64,000 nt of DNA from Marsupella aquatica (lineage: Eukaryota > Plantae > Marchantiophyta): contig OZ316894.1 in NCBI GenBank assembly GCA_973895155.1, forward strand, positions 16,848,216 to 16,912,215, in the 5' to 3' direction. The notes below the pieces were generated by a model. It was not told the origin of the DNA and did not search any database. It saw nothing but the letters and a program-made list of their open reading frames with translations. This document shows positions 1 to 57,222 of the stretch, piece by piece (the stretch's first letter is position 1; every line of letters begins with the position of its first letter). A program made the position numbers and the translations under genes.

Positions 1-1389
1 TGGGGGCAGGGGTATTCTCGGGCCCATGCACTCCCTGCGGAGCAATCCGCGCCCCACTCTCCGGTACCAATTCTCACAAATGAAACCGGCTGTTCACAAA
101 CGATGTTGCTGTGAAGCTCCAAAAACCTGCCCACAAACAAAGCTCACAAGAAGTCTCCAAGCTTTGACTAGATCGATATCTGGGAAGGCTGTGAACTATG
201 GATCGGATCATAGCTCGGAGCATTGGGGCATTGCGAGCGGAGAATTAGGAATCTTGATGCTTGACATTTGCAATGGGAATACACCACAGGCAGGCAGCAG
301 ACGAGTGGGCCGGCATTAGAATTTGAGTGTTTGACAGATTCAAAGAGCTATGGAATGGGAGTTGAGCTAAAAGACTTGTGTGACTCGCGCTGTTCTCCTC
401 ATTGTACGCACCTCATTATCTGTGACTCCGTTCGAATGAAATTGTCCATTCTGCCCTTGTGAGTCCTGACTTGTGGAAGCTTTGACCTGAGTGAGTGACT
501 GAGTGACTGAGTTGTGAAGCTTCGAGTGTGTGAGAGAGCGCCAGGACAAGGCTCTGGGATTTCAGGAACGGGTCATGTGAATCGTCCACTTCAGGTAGTA
601 ATCTGCTAGAGATGTCCAAAGGCGGCCCACTTTGTCCGTGACCTCCGAATTCCACCTCAAATGATCGCACTACCATTAGGTAAGCACAAGGAGGAGCGAC
701 AATACTTCCTTTTGAAGCACAGACTACTATAGGATTCAATCCGTGTATCTTACTGCACGAAGATACTTCACAGATCCATGTCACATCTCTTCATCACACG
801 AGGGCTCGCTTGGGTCCAGATTGACAGGAAACAAGATTTTTGGCAGCAACGCTTGCAATTTTGAACTGCTCAAATCGAAGTATTCAGAGCAGGAGATTGG
901 AAATCTATTTCTTCTGCACCCAAAGCAGAGGCAACATGGGACTCCAGCCACTGAAAAATCAAGTCGTTTGCCACACTCGTGATCGAGTGCATGGCATATG
1001 CCATCAGTAGTTCCTGCGACACATAATCTATAAGGCAAAGATGCCCAGTCGCCGCACAGTAGGGCAACGCATTTGCCTTCAACAACACGGATTCTAAGTC
1101 GCACTCGAATGATCACACTCGCTCAAATAAAATGGATCGTTTCTTGACGGGGGCCTCGCGCCAAGCTTGCAGATAGCGCCACCATAGCTTCAGGCTGAAC
1201 GGATTTCTCAGAGCATCACTTTCTCAGTTTGCTCCTGTTGTCGAGTGTTCAAAGATTAGAGTAGCTGCATCAGAGAAAGGAAGTTCTCTTACCAGATGTG
1301 GCCATAGCTTTGAGAATTGAGAACTTTCATCATGGAAGGAGATCCCATGGACATAGATTTCAATGTAACTCCTTCATCTCAAGAGCCAA

Positions 1390-2752
1390 ATGTTCACTCA
1401 GTTAATAGTTGATGTCCATAGGGTTCGTCAATTTCCTCACAGAGACATTAACATAAATTTGCTAGTGAGGGTAGTAGCTTCTTTGATGGCAGCGCTTGCC
1501 TCTGTCACACAGTCATTGTTGCCTATGACTGATGCCACAAATCTAGTGCTCCATCTCTCAAATCTAAGTAGAGCTCATGTGGGTAGAGATGCACTTGTTT
1601 GTCACCTGATTCCAACATTTTTGCACCTTGTTGGAATTGCTTATGTGCGTCCAAGGGAAATTATCGATCAGTGGTACATAAAACCACGAACCAGGCATCG
1701 TTTGATGCTTTGGATGGACGACACACCACTTGAGGACCCACAGTGCTTCAGAGAATTTTTTCAAATTGGTCCTGAGCTCTTTTTTTATGTATGCGAGCTA
1801 GTTCATGATGACATGCTTACAGATCCTCCAGAGTCTCTATGGATATTGCCAAACCGCAAGCTTATTGTGATCAGGCAAGTGGCTCTTGCCTTGAGACGGT
1901 TGGCAGTGGGAGATACCTTCCTAACTCTAGGAGAACTATTTGGTGTTTCGAAAAGCACAGCAATTAAGGTCACATGGAAGTTCATCTGTGCACTTCGAAT
2001 CAGGGCAGGACATGTAATTTGTTGGCCAGATACTGTAGGGCTTGCTGAGGTTAAATCTGCATTTGAAGATAGGTGGGGATTTCCAAATTGCTGCGGAGCC
2101 ATCGATGGAACTCACTTTCCAATCGAGTTACCTGCTGGGGAAGATTCCACTCAGTACTACGATTGGAAACACAAGCTTTCTGTGACCATGCAGGCCATTT
2201 GCGACCATAGGCTGAAATTCTTGGATGTTTTTTGTGGCTTACCAGGTAGCATTCAGGATACTCGGTTGATGAGACTCTCTCGATTCTACACTCAGGTTAC
2301 ACAGCATCAGAGTCGTCTGAATGGTCCTTCAGTTCATTGTTTCAATGGTACAGAGGTCCAAGACTATATTAGAGGAGATGCAGGATATCCTCTTTTGCCA
2401 TGGCTCATAGTTCCTTACCCAAAGGGCATGTCACAGCAGAGTGATGAATTCAATTACATGCATTTGAGTACCAGGATGTGTGTTGAAAGATCATTTGGAA
2501 AGCTCAAAGGCACTTGGAGAATTTTGAATAGGATCTTATGGAGACCTCAAATTAGTAGGATTGGACCTATGGTTTTTTCTTGCTGCATTCTACACAACTT
2601 GAAGATAGGCACGATGCTTTGCCCAATGCAGTGTGGCATAATGTTCCTCCACACCCACCAGGATATGCTGGAGTTTTGAGACCTAATCTAAGGATGTATC
2701 AAGGAGGGCCAGAGGCCAGAGATGCCTTATGCAATCACTTACTACACCAGTG
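1390..2752 (+). pseudogene. Harbinger/HARBI1-type DDE transposase (DDE_Tnp_4-like), slightly degenerate
   Basis: The 429-aa ORF has LAVGDTF..LGELFGVSKST (HTH), GFPNCCGAIDGTHFPI, QAICDHRLKFLDVFCGLPGSIQD, GDAGYPLLPWLIVPY, RMCVERSFGKLKGTWRIL and CCILHN. It appears frameshifted near both ends; an alternative frame ends ...ARDALCNHLLHQ* at ~2752. Confidence 0.9.
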
Positions 2753-3919
2753 ATTATGAACTTTAGTACAATTGTGAAATTTTTAATCCTTGTTATTTAC
2801 TTTGGTTTCGTGATACATCTCCTTGGTTGCAGACATTCATTTCATTGAATCTCTCATTCTAAGGCCAATCTACTACCTAATGTAAATTTTTGATAGTATC
2901 AGTCTGTAATGTAGCTGTGAGATTGGTTTTTGAATTGGTTTTTTGGCTGTCAAGAACTCATAGGTGAAGCTTTTTTAAAGTCAATTTTGCATTGCAAAAA
3001 CCTTGGATGTTGGGGCAACTTAGAAAGTGTATGTTGAGGACTCCTTTTAGTGTTAGAGGTGTGGACGTAAATGCAGGAAAGAGGTGCAGCCCCTGCACAT
3101 CGATTCAATGACCAATTTGTCTCAACTGACCAATTTTATAGTGTCTTCAAATATCAGTTTGAGATCATTTTCTTATCCACATCTGCACGACAATTCCAAA
3201 AACTTGGTTCTGAAAACTACACATGCACAATTCGCCTTCATTTATGCACTGCAGAAAACACGTAGCCCTATACTAATCCTTGCATAGAGCTCTTCTGTCC
3301 CGAATAATGTTCATAGGCCATTGTTAAAAATCAGGCAAGGCAGCCTCGAGTCTGTCTAGGGCTTCTCACTTAGTTCTCTACGACCTATCCCAAACTCCAT
3401 CTGCAAGGTACTGTATGGAGTCACCAATGAAGGCTAGAGCGTTTGCAACGTCTTTCCCTGTTTCCATGGATGATTGGATGGCATCTCTTTGCTGAAACAG
3501 TGAATCAAAATGTTTCTTTTCTTCCAGAGTGATGTGCTCATGATGCTCCTCTCTTCTTGCAACTCGATCATCAGCAATTGTTGCTACAAAAGTTTGTGTG
3601 ATCTTTTGTAACTCACTTGCTGTTCTCTCCCTTTTTGTGCGCTTCCAGCCTCTTGTGGTTTCTTGGATGACCCCACATCACCATGTCCATTCACAGAATC
3701 AGATCCTTGCCTTGGAAGCCCTCCTGAGGTTGGAGCTCCTATGTTGTTAGTGGCACTTGGAGTCTGAGTATTAGTAGAGTCATCAAGAGTGAATGGTGGC
3801 ATGGTGGTGTTCACTGTCTCATAATCCCGAGCCCCCTAAAAGTGAGCATGAGGGCTAGTGACAGTGTTTTGTTCATCATGATTTTTGGCTGTCCTGACCT
3901 CTTCCTCTAGTCTGCTATT

Positions 3920-4262
3920 TGTTAGGTATTTACTCAAGGTCTAGGGTTACGACATGTAACCATAGTTAGGCTAACCATAGTCGGAGACGTGGTTAGGTTA
4001 ACTAGGATGCACACTATATGCCAAGCGGTGTTTGCTTGGATAAGTGGAACTTAGGCTCATTGTTATGGAGCCACTTGAGAGATGAGGAGAGCTTACACTG
4101 TGGAGACTTGGTATGGCCGACGAGCGTAGAGTTCAATAAAGCTCTCTTGTGTGTTCCCTTGGATGTAGCCTCGAGGAGGTGAACCACGTATCTCTTGTGT
4201 CGACTACTTGTGCGTTGGATGTGTCATGTGCTTACCGTTGCAATTATCGTCTATGCTCAACA
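3920..4262 (+). repeat. 5' LTR of copia element
   Basis: TGTTAGG...CTCAACA, followed by the PBS. Direct repeat of 10366-10708. Confidence 0.95.
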
Positions 4263-6053
4263 ATTGGTATCAGAGCATGCCTGGGAGGTGACATTGTTCG
4301 TGACGGGATTTCGTGATGGTTTTTTCCAGCGTTGAGTGTCGGTGGATTTCCCGGAGTTCCGTCGCATGAAACTTGGAGTTTATGGGCTCAGCGGATAGAT
4401 CGGGGCAAGGGCTTTCTAACGGTGCAAAGAAATCGCTAAACAAAGATCGTGGTGCGGAGAGATCTAAGTTTTAGTCGTTCTGGATTTTGTGAAGAAAGTT
4501 GGCAACATTCGTGTTCGACGGTTTTTTCGGAGGAGGGACCAGAGTTTGTTTTCTTGACGGTGTGAGCTCTACGGCGAAGGAGTCGTCGCATGTTGTAACT
4601 CTGCTTGTAGATCGAGACGAGCTGATCATTTTGGTAGATGGTTTGTTGCCGAGTGTATAACGAGTGCGTCGCAACGAGCAAAAGAAGCATTCTGATTTTC
4701 TGACCGGCTATGGAGTCCTCTTTTGCCTGAGCGGGGTTTCTCGTCGTTGCGCTTGACTCGGAGGGAGAGACGTGAAGTACTTGGGTTGAACGGAGAGATC
4801 ATGAAGAGGTGATTGTTGAGTCCAAGATTGACAGTTTTGCCCACGGGAGGAAGGAGTTCTGAGTTTTTGTCACTGATTGACCAGAAAACGGTGTGGGTGT
4901 GCAAATTTTTTCAACCCACCGACATCGGTTTCTGATTCCTCACCATAATCCGAACGTTACAAGGTGCAAGCTCTTTTCATTTGATGTCCACAAGCATTTT
5001 TGGATTTCTTACAGGCAAATTTATTACTTGAAAAATACTCCATTTACGACTCTCTCTCTCTCTAGAGACCTCCATCACACTTTGGAGAGGACTTTCTTTA
5101 GGGCCCTTACTAGCCGCATGCAGTTTTCTTCTCCTTGCCAAAGTGTGGTTATTTCCTTTGTATTGTTGGGGGGCTTCTTCTCCTTTTTTGTTTGGCTTAA
5201 GGAGTGTGTGTGTACACAAACAATCGTGTGTGCACACATAATCGGTCCCCTCCCCCTCCCGTGTTTGCAACCTCCCGCCCTCCATCCTGCCGGATACGCA
5301 GCCGCCACCGCGGTGTCGACCCCCGCGCCGGCCGGTCCTTTTCTTCCCCGGCCACGCCCCCTTTGCAACCCCCGCTCTTTTCCCCAATTTTTTTCCTCCC
5401 GGCGATGACTGCTTCCGGCAGTTGCTTTGCGGTTGCCTGTTCCCAAGCCCTACGCGCGTACGCGGCTGCGTATGCAGCCGCTCCCCCTTTGCGTGTCATC
5501 CCGGCATACCCCCCTCATGTACCTGGCGTATTTTTCTGCAAAGGGGTTCTGAACCCCTTTAAGGGCACCTTATTAAATTTTTTCCTCCTTCCCCATTGGC
5601 TGCCGCATCCCGGGACCTGCCACCCTCCACTTTAATTGCTTGGATAGGGGGAACGGCCCCCTGTGAGCCCTGCTGCTCTGTGCAAGAATATTCCTAAAAA
5701 ACAGAGAGCGTGTTTTTGGCAGTCCGTCAAAGATTCCGTCCGCCAAAAGGTAACTTTTTTGTTCGTCTTCGGCAAGTTGCTAGCCATCAGAGTTGGCAAC
5801 GCGGTGCACAAATTGAATTGCATTTTCAACATTGGGTACTAGTTCACATTTTGGTTATTCCCCGAGGTGGTCAAAACGGGGGAGAATTCCAAGTTTTACC
5901 CATCCTGACCAAAAAGTGAATAACTTTTACGTCGGAGTTTGGTTTTGATACTGGCTTTTAACATTGAAAAGCTAGGCTCGTGGACTACATGGCGGTGATA
6001 AGTTTTGAGTTTTTGGAGAAGTTGAGAAAAACTTCATTTTCTTGCATTCTCAC

Positions 6054-9000: not shown

Positions 9001-10168
9001 AGAGATTCACACAGGAAAAAGGTGTGAATTACAATGAGGTCTTCTCACCAGTTGCTAAGTACTCAATAATACGGCTATTGTGTGTGCTTGTTGTAATGTT
9101 TGGTCTGCTGCTAGATCAGATGGATGTTGTCACAACTTTCCTCTATGGCACCTTGGAAGAGGTGATCTTCATGAGACAGCCACTAGGTCGTGTGAAGAGA
9201 GGACAGGAGGAACTGGTTTGCAGATTGCTGAAATCTTTGTATGGGTTGAAGCAGTCACCAAGATAGTGGAACAAGCGGTTTGACGATTGGATTCGGTCAC
9301 AGGGTTTTCACAGGAGTGTGTTTGACCCTTGTGTATATTTGAAACCGGTGAAGAATGCTATTTTTGGGTTCATTGTTTTAGTACTTTATGTGGATGACAT
9401 GCTTATTGCGGCCAAGGATAGGTCTGAAATTGTTAAGCTTAAGGCACTCCTCAGTGCAGAGTTTCCCCTTTGGCTGCACACTTCAAATTGTCATCAGCTT
9501 TTTGTCCCACGAATACGACAGAGAAGGGATTGATGTCAAGGGTTCCTTATGATAAGGCAGTGGGAAGTCTCATGTATTTGATGACTTGCACTAGACCTGA
9601 TCTTGCTATGGCTATGGGCAAGGTGAGCAGGTACATGTCGAATCCAGGGAAGGTACACTGGGAAGCAGTGAAGTGGATTATCAGGTACTTGAAGGGTACT
9701 GTGGATCATGGTCTTTTATTTGATGCAAATGCAAAGAATGCAAGATCATTGATTGGCTATGTAGATTCTGACTATGGACAAGATCTGGACCAAAGGAGAT
9801 CAACAACAGTGTACGTGTTCACATTTGGCGGTGGATGCATAAGTTGGAGGTCTACTTTGCAGAAGTGTATTGCTCAGTCTACTACAGAAGTGGAGTATGT
9901 TGCAGCAGCGGAAGCAGCGAAGGAAGCAATTTGGTTGGATAGTCAAAGTGCGCTCCACCTTGTTGTGAACCAGGTGATGGACAGTAGAGTGAAGCACGTA
10001 GACGTCAGGTACCATTTTATCAGGCAGGTTGTGTCTGATAATTTATTTGAGCTAGTCAAGATAGACAGTAAACTCAACCCAGCTGACGCATTTACCAAAG
10101 TGATTCCTTCGGAAAGTTTCTCTAGACATGGTGATGTGCTTCAGGTTTTGCAATTGCGTCACAAGTAA
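6054..10168 (+). pseudogene. Copia gag-pol polyprotein with multiple stops and frameshifts
   Basis: KFEVEKYDG (gag), CWKCHKVGHVKRDC zinc knuckle, WILDCACSFH protease, LWHSRLGH, integrase LRSDNGEEY/TPQQNGVVER, RT YKARLVAK/LYGLKQSPR/LYVDDMLI, RNase H GYVDSD/KHVDVRYHFIR. Confidence 0.95.
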
Positions 10169-19510: not shown

Positions 19511-19960
19511 CCCCCTGACCCCAGTGTGGACTTGTCTGACAAATAAGGGGTCTGGACCTCGACAAATGACATTAGTCACACCCGACCTGTCCTGGCCCCA
19601 ACCCCAACCCCCGGCCCCAGCTCACACCCCGCCCTGATCTGGCTCCGGCCTGGCCCGACCCGCCCACACCCCGCCCCAAACCTGACCAGCCCCGGCCCCC
19701 GCCTGTGCCGCCCCGCCCCGCCCCTGACCCCAAACCAGGGGGCCGGCTCACTAACCGGGGGAGTCCGGGACCGGACCGGGAGGGGGTCGGGAAAGTTTGG
19801 GACCGGGCCGGGAGAGGGTCAGGAAAGTTCGGGGCCGGCCGGGGAATATTGGAAAATATGCGACAAATGACCCCTTTTGGAGCCACAGCCGACAAATGAC
19901 GTCGGACACGACAACTTGTTCTGTCCGACAATACTACAACTTGTCCGTCAGTTCAAACGG
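19511..19960. mobile_element. Small non-autonomous element or end fragment related to the adjacent 12-kb element
   Basis: Begins CCCCCTG, has repeated GACAAATGA motifs and a C-rich then G-rich core. Positions ~19820-19870 are an inverted homologue of ~20144-20190. Confidence 0.5.
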
Positions 19961-20164
19961 CCCCTGGCGCACTGTCCTTCAAGGGTGATGATTTTCCTAC
20001 GTGAAGGAGAATTGTAGGCCATTTTTTCACCAAACCACAGGGTCACTCAGGGCACAGGACATCCTGCACCCGGTTTGATGTGACGGGCAACTTGCCGAGT
20101 TGCCCGGCACGTAAACTTATCATTTGCCGGCCTGAATTACCCTCATTTGACGCATATTCGCCGT

Positions 20165-21005
20165 TATTCCCCGGCCCGGCCCGAACTTCTCCCGGCCCGA
20201 CCCTAACTCTTCCCGGCCTCTTCCCGGACTCGGCCCAGCCCCTCCCCTACCTCTTGTCACCCGGACCCGGCCCCGACTTTACATCCCGGCCCGGCTCGGG
20301 TGAGGAGGCCTGGCCCGGGTGAAGCGAGGCCCTAGACGAGGGAGGCCCGGCCCGGGTGGAGGGAGGCTTGGATGGGGGAGGGAGGGATGCCCGGCCCGGG
20401 TGAAGGGAGGCCCGGGTGGAGGAGGGAGGGAGGCCCGGCCCGAGTGAAGGGAGGTCCGAGAGGAGGGTGGAGGGAGGCCCGGCCCGGGTGGAGGGAGGGC
20501 CCGGGTGGAGGAGGGAGGGAGGCCCGGCCCAGGTGAAGGGTGGCCCGGGAGGAGGGAGGCCCGGCCCGGGTGGAGGGAGGCCCGGGTGGAGCGAGGAGGG
20601 AGGCCCAGCCCGGGTGAAGGGAGGCCCAGGAGGAGGGAGGAGGGAGGCCCGGCCCGGGTGAAGGGAGGAGGGAGGCCCGGCCCGGGTGAAGGGAGGCCCG
20701 GCCCGGGTGAAGGGAGGCCCGGGAGGAGGGTGGAGGGAGGCCCAGCCCAGGTGAAGGATGGCCCGGGAGGAGGGAGGAGGGAGGCCCGGCCCGGGTGGAG
20801 GGAGGCCCGGGAGGAGGGAGGAGGGAGGAGAAGGGCCCGGCCCGGGTGGAGGGAGGCCCAGGTGGAGCGAGGAGGGAGGCCCAGGGGAGGGAGGAGGGAG
20901 GCCCGGGAGGAGGGAGGAGGGAGGCCCGGCCCGGGTGAAGGGAGGCCCGGGTGGAGGGAGGAGGGAGTCCGGGTGGAGGGAGGGAGGCTGGCGGCTCGGC
21001 CCGGG
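20165..21005 (+). repeat. GC-rich left subterminal repeat array (GGAGGCCCGGCCCGGGTG[AG]AGG units)
   Basis: C-rich tract, then many degenerate G-rich units, ending immediately before TTATAAAG. Confidence 0.9.
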
Positions 21006-21176: not shown

Positions 21177-23498
21177 TGTAAGGAGGGATGTGACGCCAAT
21201 GACATGGTCCTTATTTTGTAATCTGATTAAGTAGGTTGCTGTATGCAAGGAGTAGCTATTGATATTACATAACAATTAGCAAGATGGCAAGAATAAGGGC
21301 AATCATGGCGTTAAGAGTAGGGAAATAAAAACTATGTCGCGGGTGGTCGACGACCATATCTCTTTCAATATGTCACCAAATCCGGATCTGTAAAGGGCAT
21401 TGGAAAGATCTGGTCAAGGCGAGTAAAATCGATATAAAACACTTGGGAAATGGAGGTGTATTAAGAGAGATACGGCCTGATTAGTGTGACGGGTTAACTT
21501 ATGGCCGGAATTAGCAGATTCGGCTTCAGTTTTGGGTTAACCCAAGCTCGACCACGGCTTAGCTTATGTGAGCACGGCTTCAGCTTAGCTCAGGTAAGCA
21601 CGGCTTCAGCTTAGCTCAGGTGAGCACGGCTTCAGCTTAGCTCAGGTAAGCACGGCTTCAGCTTAGCTTAGGTCAGCACAGCTTCAGCTTAGGCTTAACC
21701 TAGGTTCGGATTAGATTGAACTCGGGTTAGCCTAAACTCGGGCTCAGGTTAGCATAGGTAAGCTCGGGTTCGGGCTCAGCTTAGGCTAGGTTAGCGGATA
21801 GCGGGTAGCGGCCTAACCCGAGACCACGGGTTAGCTCTACTCGGGTTAGATAGGATAGCTAGGTTAGCCGAACTCGGGTTAGCTATGTAACTCGGGTTAG
21901 CGCAGCAGTGAGTACCCCCCTCTCGGTTGCGGGGGCATAACTCTCTGTGTATTTGACCAAATCGGCTATAATTGACCTCGTTGGAAAGAGGAGCTCAAGC
22001 CGCTTCCAACGCTGCTATCCACGCAGCAAATGGTTGAATACAGAAATCGGGAGAGGAGGCGTAAGCTCGCGAAAACCATGGAGGAGGGCCAAATCCGAAG
22101 TACATAGCCAATTCGAGATAGAAATAAAGCTGCGAGTTAGGGTTCAGTAGTTAGAGATAGTGGCGGCTCTGTTAGGGCTGGGATGGGGCTCCAGCAGCGT
22201 AGTACCCAGCCATTTGGGCTCAATATGAGAGTATATAGAGCAGCCCCCCAGTAGAGATGGGGGGGGGACTTCAGTTGTGTGATCTCACTTAGACTGAGTA
22301 GCGGGGAGGAGCTCTGTGCAAGCAAGGCTGGACTTGGACGCTGCGTGTTGGGGAGAGCTTGGTTGTGCTATACTCAGGGAGTAATCAGCCAAGCTTCACA
22401 ACAACGGGTTGCTAGGTTTGCGAGCTGGATTGTGGCTCTTTCTAGTGGGCAGCACAACTGGGTTCTTTTCCCCCGATACAGAGCCTTGGTGATAGGTGAT
22501 GTATTGGTGATTGTAAACTGTGGGGAGGATTTCAATTCGATTTGCGGTGGGCACATTAGGGAGGCTGAGGTACTGATTAAGGGGCAGCAGGAGGAGCATT
22601 TACAGTTCAGTCTGGCAAGGCTACGTGACCCATGGGGAGTCCCGGCCTTTGTCTGGTGGAGAGCACTAAGGGATCTATGGCCAGAGCTGAGCTTGCAGGG
22701 CAAGCGTGAGGCCGGGCCTCATTGCAGTCTGGGGTAGATCGCCGTTAGGCCTGGTACCAGCTTTGAAGTCGAGTCAACTATGCATGCGTAACTTAACGTT
22801 CTGAATTGGAGGTGTGAGATCTGTATGTGCCCCCAAGAATGAAGTGCAGTGAAGGAGGTTGAGTTCAGGATTGAGCTTGCATGGCAAGCACGGGGCTTGC
22901 AGGGCAAGCACGTCACAATCTGGAGGAGACAGCCTTCGGCCCTAGTGTTCGGATCAAGTGTTCTCAGTGAACTATTGTGCACATCTTTGAATCTAATTGA
23001 GTTTTCCTCTCAGGCCTCATTTCTCTCATGGATGTGTGTGTGTGTGAGGCAATCTGAGTGTATGATGGAACTAGCAGCGCCACTGAGAGGTGTACCGGGT
23101 GCATTGAAGCGGGCTGGGTGAGGACTGTCATAGCTCTGATTGTTGAGAGTGGAATGGCAGAGTGGTGGGGCAATGGCTTAGAAGTCCCTAAGCCGGGAAT
23201 CAGTCAGGAGTCACTGGTTTATGGGTACATTCCGGCGGCGGAATAGAAACATACCTATGACAGTAAGCATATGTATAGACCTATGCGCACCGTAGCGCTA
23301 GGCCCTGTGTGTACGGGCCCGATATGAAGACCCCTTCTCACCAGAACTATCATGAGCGCAGATCTGATCCCCAACCTCGGTTCCTTGGGATTGAGCTTGG
23401 GTGATGTGTGATAGAGTCTTGCTATGATAGTCTGGTGTTAAGGGCATAAACTGGTGTTTATCGGCATTCACAACATCCCTTCGTGATCCTCAGGTACA
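21177..23498. mobile_element. Probable solo LTR or non-coding retroelement insertion inside the left arm of the large element
   Basis: ~2.3 kb non-coding block bounded by TGT (21177 or 21189) and ...GGTACA (23498), with internal tandem repeats and a TATA-like motif at ~22232. It has no counterpart in the right arm. The TSD is not resolved. Confidence 0.45.
21571..21692 (+). repeat. 26-bp minisatellite AGCACGGCTTCAGCTTAGCTCAGGT(A/G), ~4.5 copies
   Basis: Directly visible, followed by degenerate CTCGGGTTAG units to ~21900. Confidence 0.9.
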
Positions 23499-24035
23499 AG
23501 GAGATGGTTTTGGCACCCATAGTGACGTTTTTGGTGTTAAGACCCATGTCAATCGCGTGACAAAGGATAGAGAAGACTTTTGTGCGCGCGTGCTTGGAGG
23601 TTTTACTCGGCATGTGGTAATCCGCATAATAATTTTCTTGTTATCCCTTAACAATTTAGTGGTACTTGTGGGTATTGTGAAACAAATTTCGACAATGTTG
23701 ACATTCATGTACGCATGTTTGGAGCTAAGGCTTGACGTGTGATATTTTGCATGATTGTCACTAATTGTCTCATATATTTTCATTATATCAGCAAATGCTC
23801 ATTAAATTATAGATATCACATACGTCGAATAGGAATGTTAACAACCAAAAAACAAAAGAGAACCGCTGTGCGCATGTTTGGAGTTTGACTCGGTGTGTGA
23901 AATTTCACAGTAGTTTTTGTTCTCGTTTTATTGTTGTTACTTCAAAAGACTAACATATCATTGAAATTTTATTAAGTGACTATGTTTAGCGATGTATAAG
24001 AAGACACTTTGTGTGTAAAGTTCTTGTTTTTGATC

Positions 24036-26874
24036 ATGTCTTCCAAAGAAGATGAGTCGGGCAACTCATCAGCTCATTCTACTCCTGTTAGGCATGGTGG
24101 AAATCACAATCGAGATCGTAGTGCAAAATTTTCCCTAGTGTGGAAATATTTTGAACGATGTGATACGCCATCAGCATGTAATGATATTAATCGTATATAT
24201 CGAAGATGCAAATTTTGCAAGAAATATACAACGCATCATGCAACACGAGCAAAAGCACATTTGATGGGAAACATACACAAAGGAGATGTGCCACCTTGCA
24301 CAGGCTTGTATGGAGTTGTTGACTTAGATGACATCAATAGAGTGTACAATGTCATAAAGGTTGACCCATCCATAAAGTACAAACAAAGTGATGGAAGTCA
24401 TGTTGTGTTATCCATGAGAGGTTGTAGGTCATATAACCCATCTTCCAATTCGCAAGCATCAACTCAAGACTCAAATTTTGTTGATCTCGATGAGGATGGA
24501 AATATGAGTCATCAAAGTAGAGCATCAAATTTTGCAAACCCAATCATGGATGCTTATCAAATTCCAAATATAGCTCATTTGGATAAGCTGTGGGCTAAAG
24601 CTTTTTATTCAAGTGGTATTCCGTTCAATGTGTCGGAGAATCCCTTTTTCCGTGAAGCAGTCACAGAAACTTCAAAAGGGATTGTAAATGGATATTCTCT
24701 TCCGGGTATGCGAAATTTGCAAATGAAATTATTGGAAGAGGCTAGAGTTGATCTTACAAAGGACATGACAAAAACAATGAAGGAGGCGAAATCCTTTGGA
24801 TATTCCCTTTCATCTGATGGATGGGAAAATATCCGAAGGGAACCTTTGATGAATGTCATGTTGTTTAGTTCAAAAGGAGACTTCTTTTTGGATAGTTGGA
24901 ACGCTGCACAAGCCGACAAGGAAGATGGGAAGTATCTTGGTGACATGTGGTTAAAATACATAGATGACATTGGCGTCGATCACATCATATAAATTGTTAC
25001 CGATGGGGCGCCTGCAAATTGTGTAGCAGGTGAAGAGATAGTCATGAAAAAATATCCGCATGTGAAGTGGAGTTGGTGTGCTGTCCACGTGTTTAATTTG
25101 TTGCTAGAAGACATGTGTGGCCACAAGAATGTAGTGCTAGATGAGCAAAAAAAATCCATTCAAATTGATTTTTAAGCACTTGAGATGGATAGTTAAAGCA
25201 ATTACATCATCATAAAAGTTGTCTGCAATATTTGTGAGGAAATCTGGTTACAGGAAGTTGTTAAATCCAAATGCAACGAGATTTGCAACAAATTTTTTAA
25301 TGGCGCAGAGAACATTGGAGCTAAGAGGAGCTTTACAACAAATGGTCATTGATGATAAGTAGCAATCCTATCGTGATCGACTGCCAGTTCGACCAAAGTC
25401 ATAGGGGCATATGACGAGGGCAAAGGCAGACGAACTTAAATCGTGGATACAACAAGATACATTTTGGGCTCAAGTAAAATCTACAGTCACTTTTTTCCTT
25501 CCGTTGGTGAAGATGTTGCGGGAATTCGATGGAGTTTCACCATAGTCTCCTTGGCTATATTGGAGCTTGAAAAAAGGAATAGCTAAACTGAAGGGGTGTA
25601 CATTAGTAACGGATTACTTAAAACCAAAGATAATGAAAGTGTATATGGATCGATGAAAATCACTTACTACTGATTTCATGTTAGCAACAGCATATCTGAA
25701 TCCTCAATTTTTCTTCGATGAAGATGCGGCAGGAGATGCAAAACTATATAGAGGCTTCAATGACTACGTTCATAGATATGCAAAATACAAGGTGAAGGCA
25801 GGAATCAACCATGATCAAGATGTGACGACACTTATTTTTGACATCCAAATGCAGGCATTTGAGGCTCAATTTTTTTTGTCAAATTCATCGGTTGCAATCA
25901 GAGAAGCACAATCCAATATTGGGAAATTAAGTTCGGGAGAGTCGTGGCATTTGTATGGAGCTGATTACGCGGAGCTAAGATTGTTGGCCAGAAGAATCAC
26001 GCATCAACAAATGTGTGCATCTTCATGCAAACAAAATTGGAGTTCGTATGACTTTATCCATTCAAAAAGCCGTAACAGGTTGACCAATGATCGGGCAAAG
26101 GACTTGGTTTTTGTATTCACAAATTCGAGGGTGCAAAAAGGGCTCACGAAGGTGAGAAACCCTCATACGTCTATGTACAGACGATATGATGAAAAAACAA
26201 CAACAAATGATGGCCCGAGGCCTACTTCCATAGAAGGAGGTCACAATGAACAACATGGTGTACCATGTGCGGCTCTTGGAGAGGATGACGTGGAGGATTT
26301 TGATACAATTGATGACGCAGATGAGGCTTTGCAAGGATTGTCACTACACAATGATGGTGACATGTTGACTCGTATTCCACCAGATACTGAAATAAGTGAT
26401 GTCGGAGAATGGGAAGATGAAATAGATTTGATGATGTTTCTTACAATTGATGAGTCTCAAATTCAGGATGACGAGGACTACTCATTTGATGCAAACTTTG
26501 TAATGCCTTCCCAACCAAACCCATCATTCACATACCCAACATTGAATCTACAAAATGATGTCCAAGCAAGTACTTCCTACTTATTTCAACGACGAGATGC
26601 TGTGTCAGAGCTCTGTCCAGAGAGAACAACACCCAACTTTTTTGTGCAACCTGATGATGCACAGTGGGGACAACATGCTTCTCCAACACCAAATATGTAT
26701 GAAAGGCAGAACATGACAAATCCATACACATCAAACATACATGCTCGTGTTGATGCATTTCAAGAATATCATAACGCAGATCCGGTCCAATGGATGACAA
26801 GACAATATCAATTCGATCGACAGTTGCAAGAAAATGAGAACAATAACACAAGGCACTTTTCCTCACAACCTTGA
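24036..26874 (+). pseudogene. hAT-superfamily transposase: BED zinc finger + DUF659 + hAT C-terminal dimerisation domain + acidic tail
   Basis: VWKYF...CKFCKK...RAKAHL (BED); AFYSSGIPFNV.ENPFF, LSSDGW, IVTDG...N, WCAVHVFNLLLED (DUF659); NATRFATNF, YLNPQF, ASSCKQNWSSYDFIHSKSRNRL...KDLVFVFTN. Premature stops and a frameshift are present, and the expected CERNWS glutamate reads K. Confidence 0.92.
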
Positions 26875-27142: not shown

Positions 27143-28933
27143 CTATTGGAATCTACCACTGAATAACAAATTGTCAAAGTCACCATCTGACAAGTTGTAT
27201 TCATTGACTGTGTAGTTGTCAATGGGCCTTGAATCAATGTGTGCCATTGCAATACTCTCTTGAGTCATATCTTTACTGTCTTGCTGTGTCTCCATTGGTG
27301 GCATTTGTTTCAACAAACCCGGTTGCTCATACTCTCGTTCATGAAATGGTTTCCGGCACCAATATTTCCGGCTCTTCTTCATCCACCTAAACAAGCAAGC
27401 ATGATGCCATAAGTGACCGCATGTTCCCAAAATGGAAACAGATTTGGGACCCCATGGATACAAGCACCAAGTATATCTTCCATCCTTTTCTCGAACAAAT
27501 TGGGCTATACTCTCATTGCTCTTCCACTTGTCAAAAAATTTCTCAACATCTTCAGGATCAACTTCCACATCCGAAAAAAGGTTAGATTATCCCGTAGGAT
27601 CAATCATGTGCAAATTCATATAATTGTAGTTGGTGCATCTTGATTTTTCATTGTCTGACTGACCATCCACCTCAGCAGTGTTCATTTGCTCAATCTCCTC
27701 TTGCAGATTGCTTATGATCACATCTTGTGATGCAACTTGATTCTTCAAATCAAGAATGACTCTATTTGCTTCTTGAACTTGCATCATTTGACTACATTGA
27801 CCATCCTTTTGGGCTAGTTGTTTCTTGAGCATTGCGATCTCCTCCATCTTGTCGTACAGTTGCACCTTGTATTCCTTGACCTCTGAAGTAGTTGCAGTTT
27901 GAATGGGTATTTTTTCCATTGCTTTCATCTTCATAATATTATCTTGCAACTTTGACTTGTAGTAGTCAATGCTGCTAGCTTCACAAAGCTCAAGACAAAA
28001 TTTTGTGCGAAGATTGTTCTCGATCAATTGACCAATCTCTGTGCCCAAACTCTTGCACACAATCTCCATGCTCAGTGATTCTTTCTTTGCATCCAAAACA
28101 CCAGTGAACTTTCCTGGTACATTGTTACTTGTAGAGGCAGCTAGAATGTTTGATTTTTTTTCCACATGTTTTGTTGCACCATAACTTTCGGATTTAGTGA
28201 AGAGTCGTTCCAATGCAGTCGGCTTATCTTTATGATGCACATGAATGTCTTGCGTATCATGTATCTTTCTTTTGGACCCTTTGTTTGTTGCTTGTGCCGA
28301 GATATCTTTCGCAATAGAACTCTTCTTAATTCCCTGTAAATCCAAGACAGACGTATGCACATTGTGAGCCATCTTGCCCTCTTCCGTTTCCCAACGGTAA
28401 TCCACCTTCCACTTAAGGATGAATTCAGCAATTAGGAGTCTGAGAAATGGCGGATAAACCAAACTCGTTTTGCCCTACGCCTTTTTTGGAGCATACTCTC
28501 GAAATTGTTGTTGCCAATGCTTCCCAATCTCCACATGTGTGACCTTCGACATGGTGTACTTCTCTTGCAACCAATACTTTATGGACCACAAAGTCTCATC
28601 ATCAAAAATGATTTTCATAAATTTGTGAAACTCCACACGCGGCATCAATATCTCCAATTCTTTGGCATTGATGGGCCAATCATTGTGAGGAGGTTTCACA
28701 TTTGGCATCGTGATATTCTATTCAACATCTTTGGTGTCCTCTTCCATTTTGGTTTTCCTTTGCTTTGCATGGTTGCTACTCATTCCCATGTCCTCATCCG
28801 TGGGTTGAGAATCTATGGGTTGAGAATCTATTGCAATGTACTCTTCCATAGCATAGTCGTGTAAATCCTAAGCATACCCGTCCTTTGTACAAGGTTTCTC
28901 CTCTTCATCGGATTCCAATTCCCATTTTCCCAT
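27143..28933 (-). pseudogene. Coiled-coil + C-terminal RING-H2-like protein (putative E3 ligase), transposon cargo
   Basis: ORFs 28475-28708, 27587-28462 and 27143-27568 share one frame from ATG 28933 (~596 codons, 4 in-frame stops). There is a heptad-rich region, then YTWC...TCGHLWHHACLFRWMKKSRKYWCRKPF. Confidence 0.75.
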
Positions 28934-29117: not shown

Positions 29118-30775
29118 CTAATCTCTTAGATAACGACTATTGTGCTGAACTAATCTACAATCCTGGAATGTCCTCATCATTCTCAAACTCCAATGAACAC
29201 AATCCATTCTTTTGGTGACATTAGTGGCCATCATGTCACGTATCATAATCTCCAATTTAGGGCCATGCTCTCTAGCATTCTAACCCCTATTCAAATAACG
29301 TGTCATTGGGGTCATTCCATCCCAATTTTCTGTAAGTAATGTCTCAAAGACATTGCCCAAAGCATATATGTCAGTTGCCTGACTGTACTCTACTGGATCG
29401 GAATGAACTAGCTCAGGCGCCAATTGTGGATATTTTTTTTGATACGCAACAGCTTTCTCTGCAGGGGTGGGCCACATTCGATTCAGTGGTAATGTGCATT
29501 GTGATTTGTGTTTGGACAACCCAAAATCACATATTCCTACATAAACTCTGATTGCCAAATCATCCTCGTGATCAAAGTGAAGAAGAATGTTCCCAAAATG
29601 AAGATCACAATGGAATCGGTCGTGTGCATGCAAATACTGCAACGTCTCCAATAAAGCCATAGCAATCCCCAAACGATGTTCCAAAAAGAGTTTCTTTTCG
29701 GATATGAATGTCACATCCACTTCCGAAGTGGATTGTGTCTTCCCCTTGCTCTTACTCCATTTCCCACACTTATCTATAAAGCTTCCCAAGTCACCTCCAT
29801 TGTAATGATCATAGATAAGTTTGGGTGGATCTTCGATGGTCATTGCCAAGGCCCCAATGATTCCTTTGTGATTCAACCCTCCCATTAGCACTTCTTGTAA
29901 AGTATCTGTTCGTCTTTTGTGTCGGTCTCCATCCTTGAATCGTTTTGCAACTAGTGTTGCATTTTGAGGAATCAATGGGCAATCCAATATATGACATATG
30001 AACACATGTCCTTGGATACCGCTTCCAATGCGATGCAAATTTTGTACTTGCTCCCTCCTCAAGAAATGAATACTCCTGACCATGGAAAGAACTCGTGATG
30101 GACGCGTTCCTCTATCTGCAACTTCCACGCCAATCTCTCCAAACTGCACGACCTTGCTCGCATATTTGACATTACTCTCCGATTTGGCCATTGCTAACTC
30201 TTTGCTCCATTTTGCTAGCAAATCTCTTCTATGTGTGTATAGCCCAGGAACTCCAAGCATGACGGCCCCAGCCTCATCCAAATTGGTTTCCAACTTGTCC
30301 CAAAGATTTATCGCAAAGTTCAACGCCAGATGTTCAACAAATCCACCTGGCTTCTCAAAATTCCTTATTAAGGCAGCAATTTCATCTCGGGTCATGTCTT
30401 CTTCTTTCTCCACAGTCTCATGCATGCAACGCCCCATGTCATTTAAAGGTTTTTGTAACCCTCTGCTCCATGCATGGCATACTTCCTCTGAAAGCCATCC
30501 TGCTGATACTGTGCTGGCAAAGTGTAGGGATATAGAATTTTTTTCTAAATCACAACTAACACATGTTGCCTTCTTTCTTTCAATGCAGCACCAATTGCTC
30601 CTCCTCTGTGTTTCCATTTCCCTAAGGTTTTGCCATGTTTACAGATTTCTAAGGTTTTGTGAGCATTCCTTAGGGCACTGAGGGCATGAGGATCTGGTTG
30701 GTACCCTTCGTTTAGCACGGTCTTCATTGCCTCAAAAAGTCTCATATACTCTACACTCACATGTGCAGCGGCCAT
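29118..30775 (-). pseudogene. Intronless protein kinase (ePK fold) with an unrecognised N-terminal region, transposon cargo
   Basis: IGSGIQGHV, VAKRF, QEV, LNHKGII, YLHAHDRFHCDLHFGNILL, ICDFGLSK, APEL, TDIYALG. Reading through TAG at 29280 gives ...MMATNVTKR (subdomain XI) and a stop at 29118. A frameshift joins it to ATG 30775. Confidence 0.9.
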
Positions 30776-31569
30776 GTTCTCAAGTAACCACAACAAGTTG
30801 TAGGATAAAGAATAGGTGCTTACGGAGTGAGTTGGCTGCTTGCCGAGGGTACAGATGATGCAAGTACAATGAAGCTGGATCAAGAATCCTGAAATGTCAT
30901 TTTACACTTTGTGTTGGTACCAATAATACCCAAGCAATATAATCTAGATATTTGTTCTATTTTTTATTCTTTTATTTAGTACTTTGAAAGTAACAATGAT
31001 GAAGGGGAAAGACAACTATGTGAAATACCACACGCCGAGCCGAAACTCCAAGCATGCGCACAAAAGTGATCTTTTCCTTCAAGTTGTTACATTCCTACTC
31101 CAATCTATGTGAAACCTATAGTTTAGATATCATTTGTAAATGTTGTGAAAATATTTACAAGGAATTGAGATATCCATGCAGAGTACTACACGTCGAGTCG
31201 AAACTCCAAGCATGCGTACATGAAAATCTCTATCCTAGCAAATTCTCCACTCAACTCACAAATGACACTAAACTGTTAAGGCGATATTCGGTTCTCTCAT
31301 ACGAAATACCACACGCCAAGCATAAGCTCCAAGCATGCGCATACGTGAGAACCATAATACCCCTCCAAATTAATACTAAATATGAAAGTCATATATGCAA
31401 TGCAAAACATAGCAAAAAAAACACTCAAAAACAAGGCAACTAAACTCAAAAGTAAACAAAACATGAGGAAAAGCAAGAAAAACTCACCAAAGGCCTTTCC
31501 TGCATTAGAGCCAAGCCAAAGTTAGAGAAAAAGAGAGAGAATGAGAGAAAGTGAGGAGAGCTCCTCACT

Positions 31570-32030
31570 TTATAGGCCCGGTCCCGGTCTGCCCCCCCCC
31601 TCCCCCACCTCGCGAGCCGTCTTCCGGGCGGCCGAGCCCGACCCCCCCGGCGGCTGCCTCCCTCTTTGCGTTTTACTCTCCTTAGGGTCCGAGGGCCGGG
31701 GGCTTTTGGGTCCCGGGCGGGGGGGGGGGGGGGGCTTTAGGGTCCAGGCCGGGGGCTTTAGGGTCCGGGGTGGGGGGGGGTCTTTAGGGTCCGGGCCGGG
31801 AGGGTGCAGGGTCTGGGGCCGGGGGCTTTAGGATCCGGGCCGGGAGGGTGAGGGGTCCGGGGCCGGGGGCTTTAGGGTCCGGGGCGGGAGGGGTTTAGGG
31901 TCCGGGCCGGGCCGGGGGGGTTTAGGGTCCGGGGCCGGGAGGGAATAAGGTCCGAAGCCGGGTCAGGACCGGGACTTCTACTCAGGCCGGGACCGGAGGA
32001 TGTACTCGGGCCGGGACCGGATGATGCCGA
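31570..32030 (+). repeat. GC-rich right subterminal array containing TTTAGGG heptamers
   Basis: Repeated GGCCGGGGGCTTTAGGGTCC-like units, with a minus-strand TATA (CTATAAAG) at ~31568-31575. Confidence 0.88.
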
Positions 32031-32385
32031 CTGGGAGAGTCCGGGTGTCGGTTTGCCGGTTGACGGCCTTAAAACGGCCTATTTGCCGGGCAAGTCCAAA
32101 CCGGGATCCTACACCTCTGTGGTCCCCCTCACTGGAGAATCTGACTATTATTATCACACCCTTGAAGCAGAGTGCGCCAGGGGGGAATCCCAAAACTACA
32201 AAATATCTGAAATATCAAATTTACTGCAATCCAGCTCTTAGGAAATGTGGTCTATGGGGGTTTCAAAGACCAACCTTGTGGTCCATGGGGGCTTGAAACT
32301 CGGATTCTGAGAGAAGATATGATTACTGTAATTTAGAGAGGATTGCAGATTTGCAGATCGACAGTTCGTGTGTCGAGAATTGGAT

Positions 32386-35300
32386 ATGGAGGAGAGGGGA
32401 CTGCAGCGCGTAGCTCAGCTGGCGAGGCACATCACGAGGAGCGATGGCACTAGCAAGTACGAGCGCTTGCATCGAATTGACTCCACGGATCCTGTGGTGT
32501 GGAGACATTGCTCCGTGGGAGCTGCGCAATTTGAGGAGGTCATATATGAGAAGGGCGAAGGGATCGCCAAGGTTGGGATGTGTAGTTTAATGCCAGCTTA
32601 TTGTAGCACGACTTCGTTGCTCGACTGCTCTTTACTGTTTCCGAGGTTGAATACTGATGTGGTTCTCTTCCGCAGATGACCATCAATAGGCCAGAAAGTC
32701 GGAATGCTTTCACACCCAAGACGGTGGAGGAGTTGAGTCTTGCTTTTAACGATGCTCGCGACGATAGCGAAATTGGTGTTGTGATTCTCACAGGCAAGGT
32801 GCTAAGCGAGCTTGTAATATTTTGTCTATCCGCGTGTCAAGTGTTGTTGGATAGGAAATGCTGGTGCAATGTGTAAAATTATTTCACTGGTGATACCTTT
32901 TCATGCAAGTGTTTGTAATGGCCAGTAAACTAACCATTGGGTAAGGCAACAGGGGAAGAATTACAAATCACAACCGTATTGCAATATAGTCGAATCTTTT
33001 CGTTTCAAACACATTGATCAGACCAGGAGGAAGCGGGTATGGTGCAACTTAGCCTGTGAGAAGTGAGCCATTGATGCAATATGTCTCTATCATTCTTCCT
33101 GGAGTTTACTTAGTCACAAATCTGTCATGATGTTTTCAGGGAAGCAATGCATTTTGCAGCGGAGGTGATGTAGGAGTTCGTTCAAATATGGGTTACGTTG
33201 GAGGTGACAAAATTCCTAGATTGAATGTTTTGGACTTGCAGGTCAGTGTGTTTTGTTGTCGCCGATAACTGTGTCATAACTTCTCTCTTATTGACTTGGA
33301 CTGTAAGTGGCTGCGAGTGCTCTCCTTGCCAACACTCGCACGATTCATATTCAAGCTGGGATTGTTGGAAGAGACGTGTCCCAGCGACAGAGAAATTGGT
33401 CCTTAGACGAACGTTTGCACGCAACCACAGTGCAAGACGGCCAGGATGTAAAGAGCGTCTCCTTATATTCAGATTTCGTTGTTCGTTTTTGCAGATTCAA
33501 ATTCGAAGGTTGCCCAAACCAGTGATTGCCATGGTAAGTTCTTGACACCCTCTTGTGGTTATAGAACATGCTCTTCAGCTTATGTGGCCAAGAACCTAAC
33601 TAGTCAAATCCATGGTACCGAGTTTTTCGTGAGTTGAATGCACTGGATTGATCATAACTTTCCACCGAACTTGCTGGCAGAACACCATCAAGAGGCCCTT
33701 GCGCGTGGCAGATTTATTTTGTGGAAAATCGCACTGATCTGGAAGTGTGATCCTGTTCTTCTATTCCAGGTTTCAGGCTATGCTGTTGGAGGTGGGCATG
33801 TTCTACAGCTGGTGTGTGATCTCACTATTGCGGCAGACAATGCTGTGTTTGGACAAAGTGGACCGAAGGTAGTGTACTCTGTCTCTCGGGCATCTGCAAT
33901 GTATTACCATCGGTGATTTCCTTTGCTTTGGCGTAGTAGATATTAACTTGGAACTTAACAATATCTGATGTCACCATATTATTCCTTATTCTTCAAGGCT
34001 GTACAAGGGAGACAATTGCTGATAGAGCTTGGCTCTGGACTTATCAGGTCGGGAGTTTTGATGCCGGATTTGGAGTCAGTACGATGTCTCACATGGTGAA
34101 TAGACGCTTTCCTTATGACACCTGAACTAGGATTGGAAGTCTGGGTGTCCAACAGAACTGTTGTAAAAGTGAAGGTGCATTTTTTGTCAGTGTTTTACGG
34201 TTGCCGATTCGCTTTCTATCTTTCCTTCGGAGTAATCAATAGGGATGCTTTGTTTTGCCTTGCTAGGTCATCTTTATATCATGGTAGTGGATAGTAGGAC
34301 CATGCATACACCTCAACGCTGTAACGACTTTAACGGCTGTGGGTTTACAGATCGGTGCGAGAAAAACCAGGGAAATGTGGTTTTTGGCACGTTTGTATGA
34401 TGCTCAGGAGGCGTTGAGTATGGGTCTTGTGAACACCGTTGTACCTGTAAGTTGCAAACTTCTGCTCTGTAGCCGGGTTTGGCTATAATCTGGGACCTCA
34501 GTCTATTTCAGTAATCAGTCGGGTTCGTTTGACCAATTGAGGCGCATTGGTGCCTGTAACGAGCTGTTTTATTAATTTGTGTGAAGTAAGTATTGCTATC
34601 ATAAGGTATGAATTTTTGTTTATAATGATGACTGGTATACCAGTGCAAAACATTACGGCTGTAAAACTAAATCTCTCTGGCAGACTCTACAATCTATGAG
34701 GATGTCTTTAGCAGAGTTTATTAACATGATTGATAATCCCTATTGGAGATTGAGTCAACCATCACAAACTACGGTACAGGTCGTTAAGCTTTTGATGGCT
34801 CATTTTCTCCCCACGCCTAACAGCATTTGGTTAGCAACATTCTGGGACAGGGTCCAAGTCTTTTCCTTCATCGCTGTAGTTAGGTATTCTGCTAACTTTA
34901 TTGGTGACGATGTTTTCTCTTGGCAGCTTGATAAGTTGGAACAAGAGACGGTGAAGTGGTGTCGCGAAATACTATCAAATAGCCCCACTGCGATCCGTGT
35001 CCTCAAGGCCGCCATCAATGCCACGGAGGGAAGCAGTGACCTGCAAGTAAGTAGTGCTTTCTGAATATATGGTGAACTTGTAGTTTTGGTTGATGTATTG
35101 GTTAGGTAGTGGAGGTCGCAACATGACTTCAAATGTCTAGTCTTTCTTGCTTGAAGTTGATCATTGGCAACCTATCGCGTTGGCAATGTCAGCTATTGCC
35201 TCCCTTCAATGTAAAAAATCCAACTTCCTACAACTAACTTGCATGTGTCAAGATCGGGCAGTTTTGTTCACTAAACTGTCTGCTGGTTCGTTGTTGATGC

Positions 35301-35421
35301 CCAGGCATTGGCAGGGAACGCAACGTTGGTTTTTTATGCCACTGGTGAGGCTGAGGAAGGGAGAAAGGCATATCTTGAAGGACGACGTCCAAATTTCTCA
35401 AAATTCAAAAGACTCCCTTGA
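32386..35421 (+). CDS. menB: 1,4-dihydroxy-2-naphthoyl-CoA synthase (MenB/DHNS), peroxisomal; 9 exons: 32386-32571, 32676-32798, 33140-33241, 33495-33533, 33770-33868, 34048-34095, 34351-34446, 34927-35046, 35305-35421
   Basis: The spliced frame is open with GT-AG introns: [86 protein letters not shown]-terminal PTS2-type RVAQLARHI. Confidence 0.95.
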
Positions 35422-55767: not shown

Positions 55768-57222
55768 TCACCCCGCTTTCCTTGGTACCGACGGAGTAAG
55801 TCCGCCCAAGAAATCGTGGTGAGAGGCCAGAGATGTGTACTCGGAGCCGATGCCATTGAATGACGGCACACAGGCGCTGGCTTGCACCGCTGCCATGTAC
55901 TTTTGGACTTCCTTGGCCACCATCTCCCTCATCATCGCTAACAATCCAGCGTTCACGGCAGCGTCCAGACCGAATCCCGTAGCTACTAGCATACCCCCTC
56001 CTGCCTGCTGACTTGCAATGGGTGCCGGAAGTGGTCCTGCCGGATTCTGGAGCGCCTGCGCCACGGCTGCTTGCACTACCGCAGACATCAAGTCCGTAGG
56101 AACAATCGGGGAGGGCCCAAGGGTTATTCCACAATCCGGAGGCATTCCAAAACCATTCTGTTGCTTTGGTTGGTTTTCGCCGGGAGGAGTTGACTGCTCC
56201 CAAGTGACGCCACTGAAATTCGCTGGCGATTCACTAGGATTCCTCTCAACGAGTTGATGTTGGTGTTGGTGCTGATGAGAGTGTTGATGCTGTGGAGGAC
56301 GAGGAGATTGTCCGACCGACTGAGCATGAATCGGATTTAGCCTTGCAGAACAAGAAATGGAAGAACCCCGAGGCGAGCACTCAGTTTCGATCCTCGAACT
56401 GCTGCCAGGCATGGACAGACTAAGCGATGTCGGGGGATCCATGCTGGTGGAGCTTGAAGCTTCCTGCGGTGACTGCTGTTTGTTGCTGGCGACGTTCCCG
56501 GAGGCGGAGGGACTAAAACAAGTGAAGGCGGAAGGGCGAGGCACAGGCCTAAACACATGGGGGGTCAGGACAGTCGTGGGATCGCTGTGCTCGGAGCCAG
56601 AAGGAGAGCTCGGAGAAAAATTGAGCTTCCTCACTTGAGCGCACTGCGTTGCAAGAGGACTGCCACATATGGAGCCGGAGTCCAGAAAAGAGCCACTATC
56701 ATTGGAATGCTGCTGAACCAGACCTGAGCTTTCCATGTCGACGATGCTGCTACTACGTTTCCTGGTGTCCAGGCTGCTCGCGAGATCATCTTCGTCACGG
56801 AGAATCCTACATGCATAACCCCCGTCCTCGTCCACCCTCGACCTCTCTGCGAGATACCGCCGACGAAGAGTCGAATTCCAGTGGTTCTTGATCGCATTAT
56901 CAGTGCGCCCAGGCAGCAGACGAGCAATTGTGGCCCACTTATTCCCGTGGTGTGCATGAGCCTGGATAATGGCTGCATCTTCTGCTGTAGTGAAGGGCCG
57001 GTGCTGCACCTGAGGGCTCAATTGGTTGCACCAGCGTAGGCGGCACGATTTCCCAGACCGACCTGGGATGCCCTTGCTGATAAGCGACCAGTTGCGAGCG
57101 CCATACTTCTCAACCAGCCTCTGCAGAGCTGCATCCTCCTCAGGGCTCCATGGTCCCTTAATACGCTCATTGTCTTGAGACCTGCACCTGAAGTCCAGGG
57201 TCGTCGAGGGCGATACAGCCAT
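55768..57222 (-). CDS. Intronless R2R3-MYB transcription factor, subgroup 22 (MYB44/70/73/77-like), 484 aa from the first ATG
   Basis: [11 protein letters not shown]...[30 protein letters not shown] and [29 protein letters not shown], plus S22 motifs [11 protein letters not shown] and [14 protein letters not shown]. Confidence 0.95.

Follow-up and report, generated by a model that had tools for sequence, protein, structure and literature searches.

The window, by which we mean the whole stretch of 64,000 nucleotides analysed here, carries a dead copy of a protein kinase gene that appears to have travelled as cargo on a hAT transposon, and the intact members of the same family are probably active enzymes that serve the transposon and not the host. 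It is highly likely that this transposon-borne family has been kept by selection. The genomic context behind these statements covers two members, the window copy and the metagenome locus L001, plus contig pieces.

Structure of the kinase pseudogene

The kinase gene lies on the minus strand of the window, with the following features:

29118..30775, minus strand: intronless non-RD protein kinase pseudogene of about 550 codons (translation, Pfam, alignment to P0014)
30545..30547, minus strand: in-frame TAG where relatives have Trp (alignment)
30450..30460, minus strand: one-base frameshift, place approximate (alignment)
30180..30600, minus strand: helical N-terminal domain, span approximate (P0038 model mapped by alignment)
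29589..29612, minus strand: catalytic loop HCDLHFGN (sequence, translation)
29280..29282, minus strand: in-frame TAG where relatives have Trp (alignment)

Alignment of the intact relative P0014 (550 aa) to this region required no intron and fell into two pieces (30775-30395 and 30464-29121), which bore out the absence of introns and the exact gene coordinates given in the first-pass annotation. The same was true of the loop HCDLHFGN and of the intact K, D, N, DFG and APE residues, since the minus-strand translation contained GSGIQGHV (Gly loop), VAKRF, LQEVL, HCDLHFGN, DFG, APE and TDIYALG. The Hanks-type set was complete (Gly loop, beta-3 Lys, alpha-C Glu, catalytic Asp and Asn, DFG and APE), and Pfam matched the protein to PK_Tyr_Ser-Thr (E 2.6e-16) and Pkinase (E 1.5e-15). 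A structural model with a mean pLDDT of 58.8 was aligned by VIA-align to many kinases at tied Z values of 11–13, the top one reaching Z 12.8 (rmsd 3.5, 144 aligned).

This copy is dead, as it has two TAG codons and one frameshift. The TAG at 29280 and the N-terminal frameshift, placed here near 30450-30460, had both been reported before and were confirmed; the stop at 30545-30547 was absent from the earlier list of lesions. In itself, the window copy is an ordinary fossil.

Two known kinase groups were considered and set aside. Haspin has a similar DLHWGN loop and is not known to have DFG or APE; it was ruled out, as the window kinase has both. FunK1 (PF17667) gave no Pfam match for P0001, P0014 and P0019, and P0078 reached 15.2 bits against a cut-off of 24.1.

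The catalytic loop in the close family

When the open frame was used as a query, 12 proteins with E <= 1e-10 were found among 5845 candidates, being 35–74% identical to it, and those that could be named came from the leafy liverwort Calypogeia fissa. Matches of this number and strength indicate that the kinase is no chance feature. The loop was then compared in 28 family sequences, chosen by us as covering the loop and including the window's own sequence and near-duplicates. Arg preceded the catalytic Asp in none of them and Cys stood there in 23, and His was found two positions past the Asp in every sequence; the exact HCDLHFGN occurred in 10. These counts argue that the odd loop is a family trait and not a product of decay. 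Furthermore, full-length relatives of 540–636 aa (P0014, P0004, P0019, P0194, P0209, and P0008) were 47–69% identical to the window kinase, kept all of the catalytic motifs and stopped 164–169 aa past the loop. The intact members, of which CAM6081650.1 is a natural example, are predicted to be active kinases.

It is scarcely credible that part of an ordinary plant kinase, receptor-like or Raf-like, was captured neutrally and altered in its loop only once it was dead. The window copy is a pseudogene and the solved structures closest to it are tyrosine kinases and B-Raf, but these matches are weak (E 5e-5 at best), and the AU test gave p 0.007 against a join of the family with two RLK-like rows, labelled from motifs in a tree without a named plant kinome. 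The HxDxKxxN loop of plant RLK/Pelle or Raf-like kinases is not present, all 28 family sequences having His for Lys. The reading is refuted as stated by the loop being common to the family: the best matches were this close family and not canonical plant kinases, and His and Cys are shared by relatives, full-length ones included, so they did not arise by mutation after inactivation. The proposal of the first-pass annotation that this is a TE-specific kinase clade, and no captured ordinary plant kinase, is supported by the shared loop and by these best matches.

Codon differences were concentrated in third positions, which differed about twice as much as second positions, both between the window kinase and L001 (0.61 against 0.29) and between the window kinase and a second locus, L002 (0.52 against 0.24). 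Sister copies varied in at least nine sites of the kinase among the variants listed (40 of 2372); five of these were silent and four read the residue of P0014, as expected if the window copy drifted after its death. Many copies have decayed, since L002 carries two stops and several of the Calypogeia models are fragmentary. A wide-alignment homologue search returned the close family alone (17 proteins), and an Atlas search with the whole protein gave generic kinase clusters only.

Wider kinship and the question of a fungal or viral origin

A profile search of 1.84 billion representatives yielded 63 proteins with E <= 1e-10, the best 150 matches being listed. Beyond the close family, termed here subfamily A, further non-RD subfamilies were found with H[NC]D-x-x-x-x-N-x-x-L-H loops, WNGG and D[WF]G. 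The organisms named among 30 clusters were Calypogeia fissa (A), Riccia sorocarpa (D), Adiantum nelumboides (F), and two Gigaspora outgroups. These sequences point to a wider non-RD kinase group, A+B+C+D+F, in liverworts and one fern. In a careful tree of 44 rows, A was supported at 100/99 and A+B+C+D+F at 92/90, which we count as a weakness, and a quick tree of 26 rows gave 97 for the wider group; the rows were our own selection without near-duplicates or a curated plant kinome, and all outgroup labels except Gigaspora were guessed from motifs. Subfamily E (P0074, P0081, and P0082) joined the group in a first quick tree, but not in the later two, and was left out.

A horizontal transfer from arbuscular mycorrhizal fungi or from a giant virus, followed by spread on transposons, was quite unlikely. 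Gigaspora kinases with DLHxxN loops were among the best matches outside the group (E 1.3e-12 and 8.4e-9), and such loops were also present in giant-virus-like contigs. Nevertheless, the AU test, run on two Gigaspora rows with groupings taken from the earlier claim and with earlier trees already seen, rejected the join of Gigaspora with A (p 0.003) and with the wider group (p 0.023). Scored with the group profile, Gigaspora (52–57 bits) and 24 viral ORFs (5–60 bits) fell below generic kinases (up to 93–95 bits, 93 for the tyrosine-kinase-like ones), whereas the members mostly exceeded 150 bits. No relative of the family was confirmed in 47 viral stretches or in two prokaryote sets of 19 and 69, and weak viral matches (8 and 33 loci) were discarded as generic once 24 of these 41 loci had been rescored. 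The two Gigaspora proteins, RIB03333.1 and KAF0414656.1 (Glomeromycotina, tyrosine-kinase-like), resemble the window family in having DLHxxN with His two positions past the Asp, but they are long multi-kinase proteins placed far from it in the tree; the common loop looks convergent from these sequences. Hence, of what the first-pass annotation had said on Glomeromycotina, the presence of such loops there stood, as DLHxxN in two kinases, while the horizontal acquisition that it had offered was not upheld.

When the A3 profile was searched against the PDB, GCN2 came first (85 bits against 77 for FGFR/FLT3/BRAF), and PERK was a tied top fold match to the kinase. A kinship with eIF2-alpha kinases is a weak lead from these matches and was not adopted, the margins being small.

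The hAT element and its cargo

The DNA around the kinase is best read as a 12-kb hAT/DUF659 element with the kinase and a RING-like gene as cargo:

20061..20068, plus strand: left target-site duplication ATCCTGCA
20069..20077, plus strand: left terminal inverted repeat CCCGGTTTG, 9-bp exact repeat
21185..23565, no strand assigned: later solo-LTR-like insertion (TG...CA) within the element, missing from other copies
24036..26874, plus strand: hAT transposase gene with BED-like, DUF659 and dimerisation-like parts, interrupted by stops and a frameshift
27143..28933, minus strand: second cargo gene with an N-terminus of no recognised type, a coiled-coil-like middle and a RING-like C-terminus, start codon presumed
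32097..32105, minus strand: right terminal inverted repeat CCCGGTTTG, 9-bp exact; alignment to a contig of another copy ends at 32105
32106..32113, plus strand: right target-site duplication ATCCTACA, 7/8 match to the left one

The terminal-repeat pattern, derived from these very sites, occurred at exactly two places in the window, against 0.01 expected. The flanking 8-mers ATCCTGCA and ATCCTACA agreed at 7/8 positions, for which the chance is 4.5e-4 per pair with three candidate ends examined. A 32-bp repeat at 19961/32183 was rejected as the ends of the element, having no target duplication.

The ends were also supported by other copies. A 3273-base contig from run X5, belonging to a diverged copy, covered the kinase and stopped matching exactly at 32105; its depth was 2 and it is possibly a minor component of the sample. 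The joint from 21184 to 23566 without the insertion was present in contigs of two runs, X1 and X2, at very high depth, and the net length of the element without this nested insertion is near 9.7 kb. Summed contig depth in X1, which gives no copy number, was 1346–3989 over the kinase against 23–78 for single flank contigs; the element is therefore repeated.

In the transposase, Pfam detected DUF659 (E 2.7e-13), with zf-BED and Dimer_Tnp_hAT in the order expected, although both scored below cut-off. The gene is broken; it shows SDGW, TDG and CAVH, and its last motif reads SCKQNWS where the consensus has Glu. The kinase and the RING-like gene lie on the strand opposite to the transposase. The RING-like gene has four in-frame stops and no frameshift (zf-RING_2 E 2.3e-4, below cut-off), and a longer relative of its middle part was not found among 5042 candidates, which is weak evidence. 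Plant DUF659 hAT elements share with this element the short terminal repeats, the 8-bp target duplication and the BED/DUF659/dimerisation layout; the two extra opposite-strand genes and the net length set it apart.

Additionally, GC-rich subterminal CCCGG/GGGCC arrays were observed at both ends of the element (20190-21000 and 31570-32030) and are likely binding sites of the transposase. The positions 19961-20068 and 32114-32183 belong to a small element with the 32-bp inverted repeat that was split by the hAT copy, and three insertions are nested at one spot. A 441-bp element at 19520-19960 has ends like those of the hAT copy and its own 7/8 duplication (CCCCTGAC/CCCCTGGC); it is likely a non-autonomous relative.

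Elsewhere in the window, an open Harbinger-type transposase frame was found at 1369-2679 on the plus strand (DDE_Tnp_4, E 1e-32). At 9443-10168, also on the plus strand, there is what we take, from its motifs, to be a Copia-like RT/RNase H fragment, whose LTRs may be a direct repeat of 300 nt at 3919 and 10365. A two-repeat MYB gene forms a single ORF at 55768-57390 on the minus strand. An intron-containing gene of the crotonase family, presumably MenB/DHNA-CoA synthase, lies at 32387-35420, with a Pfam ECH_1 match on one exon. As this gene starts less than 300 bp from the right end of the hAT element, the insertions lie in its promoter region. Together with the Calypogeia match, the plant-type neighbours indicate that the host is probably a liverwort or another bryophyte.

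A second context and the shared upstream motif

Among 65 metagenome stretches, two were confirmed as family loci. In L001 the kinase is intact, and behind it comes a DUF6729 gene (E 2.1e-11), which is transposase-like and spans 2527-5521 of the locus in two frames. Candidate D, D, DxxH and E residues and four Cys were recognised in it by eye, without a reference alignment, and a comparison with the first ORF of the transposase in the window showed no similarity. The features of Dada given in the available text of PMC3706591 are a DDE triad, a DxxH motif, an N-terminal CCCC finger and insertion in small-RNA genes; on these features, the neighbour in L001 may be a Dada-like element. No tRNA was found on the L001 contig. 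It shows no termini either, so the kinase could there be a neighbour and not cargo.

A 36-nt motif was located upstream of both the kinase and the transposase of the window, and nowhere else in it:

31024-31059, 31182-31217 and 31305-31340, minus strand: three copies upstream of the kinase
23586-23621 and 23711-23746, plus strand: two copies upstream of the transposase, with a gapped third near 23868 (by eye), all within 23586..23905

With a matrix built solely from five window sites, two sites ahead of the L001 kinase scored 37.3 and 27.1 bits, compared with maxima of 11.0 bits in 41 control loci (661,259 bases) and 10.6 in 200 shuffles. No strong copy preceded the L001 transposase. VANC proteins work through short repeated motifs in their own element, which the repeated 36-nt motif resembles in layout.

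These contexts bear on whether the kinases are instead a host family of seed-free plants, some copies of which were passively picked up by transposons. An old host family would suit the occurrence of the wider group in two liverworts and a fern, and the context has been seen for few members only. Nevertheless, transposases adjoin the kinase in both contexts, the upstream motif is common to the kinase and the element's own transposase, and the window kinase has no introns while the neighbouring host gene does; the many fragmentary models on different contigs in Calypogeia also tell against it. A host family is therefore considered unlikely. A link of subfamilies B, C, D, and F to transposons would be an extrapolation from A.

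The N-terminal region

The region before the kinase domain, said in the first-pass annotation to be unrecognised over about 200 aa, measured about 235 aa and gave no Pfam match above cut-off. In the model of P0038, built with 33 aligned sequences, residues 61-190 formed helices only, with pLDDT mostly 84–97. Foldseek found no match with E <= 0.001 among the PDB and viral models, the best VIA match (MavE, Z 6.1, rmsd 4.5, 95 aligned) was within background, and the Atlas search gave no usable match. The structure search that had been proposed for this region thus returned an all-helical domain with no known match in these four sources, and a new fold would not be proven by such a lack of matches.

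The profile-profile alignment of subfamilies A and C extended through this domain, and the N-terminal profile of the family gave no significant match to the other subfamilies (best E 0.11). No clear membrane helix was present in 30 proteins, the highest 19-residue hydropathy being 1.67. A basic, NLS-like patch precedes the helical domain in many of them and beat shuffles (p <= 0.05) in 5/30.

The N-terminus is also informative on a further alternative, in which the gene would act, in the manner of Crinkler kinases, as a selfish toxin or an addiction gene to the benefit of the cells or spores having the element. According to the available text of the sources, land plants have Crinkler-like proteins with kinase domains, also beside transposons (PMC5289972), and a Crinkler-like enzyme of fish spreads along with hAT elements (PMC12957317). 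The kinase and the RING protein could make a pair of toxin and antidote. However, neither LxLFLAK nor HVLV was found in the 30 N-termini, which are modelled as all helical and not ubiquitin-like. Furthermore, the proteins end shortly past the kinase domain, leaving no room for a nuclease domain, and no Pfam match to the REase nuclease was obtained in the proteins scanned. Crinkler kinase effectors were rejected as relatives on these grounds, and an addiction gene is very improbable.

Discussion

A dead copy of a hAT-carried kinase, whose intact relatives probably work for the transposon, finds its closest parallels in accessory enzymes of other DNA transposons. Fungal TET/JBP genes passed between 11 transposon lineages, enzymes are common to several DNA-transposon superfamilies in fungi, hAT among them, and IS3EU also carries an alpha-kinase, as stated in the available text of Kojima 2025 (PMC12730594). 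The window element has in common with these transposons an accessory enzyme on a DNA transposon and, with IS3EU, a kinase gene opposite to the transposase (PMC12730594). In contrast to the fungal IS3EU with its alpha-kinase, the window element encodes a kinase of the Pkinase (Hanks-type) fold that has a helical N-terminal domain of its own and is accompanied by a RING-like protein; the Pfam results contained Pkinase and PK_Tyr_Ser-Thr and no alpha-kinase domain. Silencing escape is put forward for the TET/JBP cargo as a proposal only (PMC12730594, in the text available), and the function of the window kinase is likewise a proposal. VANDAL/VANC anti-silencing proteins and the SET-carrying HarbingerS/MuDR elements, cited in the same source, are transposon-encoded counter-silencing cargo too, although not kinases.

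The best experimental model for the working of the kinase is AACRNL of teleost fish, a protein-modifying enzyme between hAT terminal repeats that, by the available text of PMC12957317, modifies EZH2 and frees its own hAT-flanked locus from silencing. AACRNL is an ADP-ribosyltransferase of Crinkler origin with non-autonomous ends, found in fish (PMC12957317); the window element has instead a kinase alongside a transposase gene of its own, and Crinkler marks are absent.

By analogy, the kinase may modify either a silencing factor or the transposase and in that way promote transposition, a role to which we give slightly less than an even chance. The 36-nt motif before both genes would switch on transposase and kinase together. 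Non-RD kinases are not known to require activation-loop phosphorylation, and the non-RD loop would keep the kinase active once it is made. The choice of substrate would fall to the helical N-terminal domain. The likeliest candidates are a protein of host silencing or chromatin and the transposase that the element itself encodes, and the RING protein may share this target. The likeliest gain for the transposon would be relief from silencing or control of the transposase. A broader proposal is rather doubtful taken as a whole: seed-free land plants would have an old transposon-owned clade of Hanks-type kinases with a new helical targeting domain; the gene would pass, along with a common upstream control motif, from one DNA-transposon superfamily to unrelated others, and its product would license jumping by phosphorylating either the transposase or the silencing machinery of the host.

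The literature listings searched, outside Repbase, supplements and subscription papers, gave no account of plant DNA transposons that carry a clade of kinases of conventional fold. Enzymes against host silencing are already known on transposons, namely TET/JBP, SET, VANC, and AACRNL, and one fungal group has an alpha-kinase, according to the available text of the sources above. Kinases of the present kind inflate kinase counts in bryophyte and fern annotations, where they could also pass as fungal gene transfers. If the proposed role is true, phosphorylation joins the tools of transposons against their hosts, and the substrate would mark a weak spot in the silencing of liverworts and ferns.
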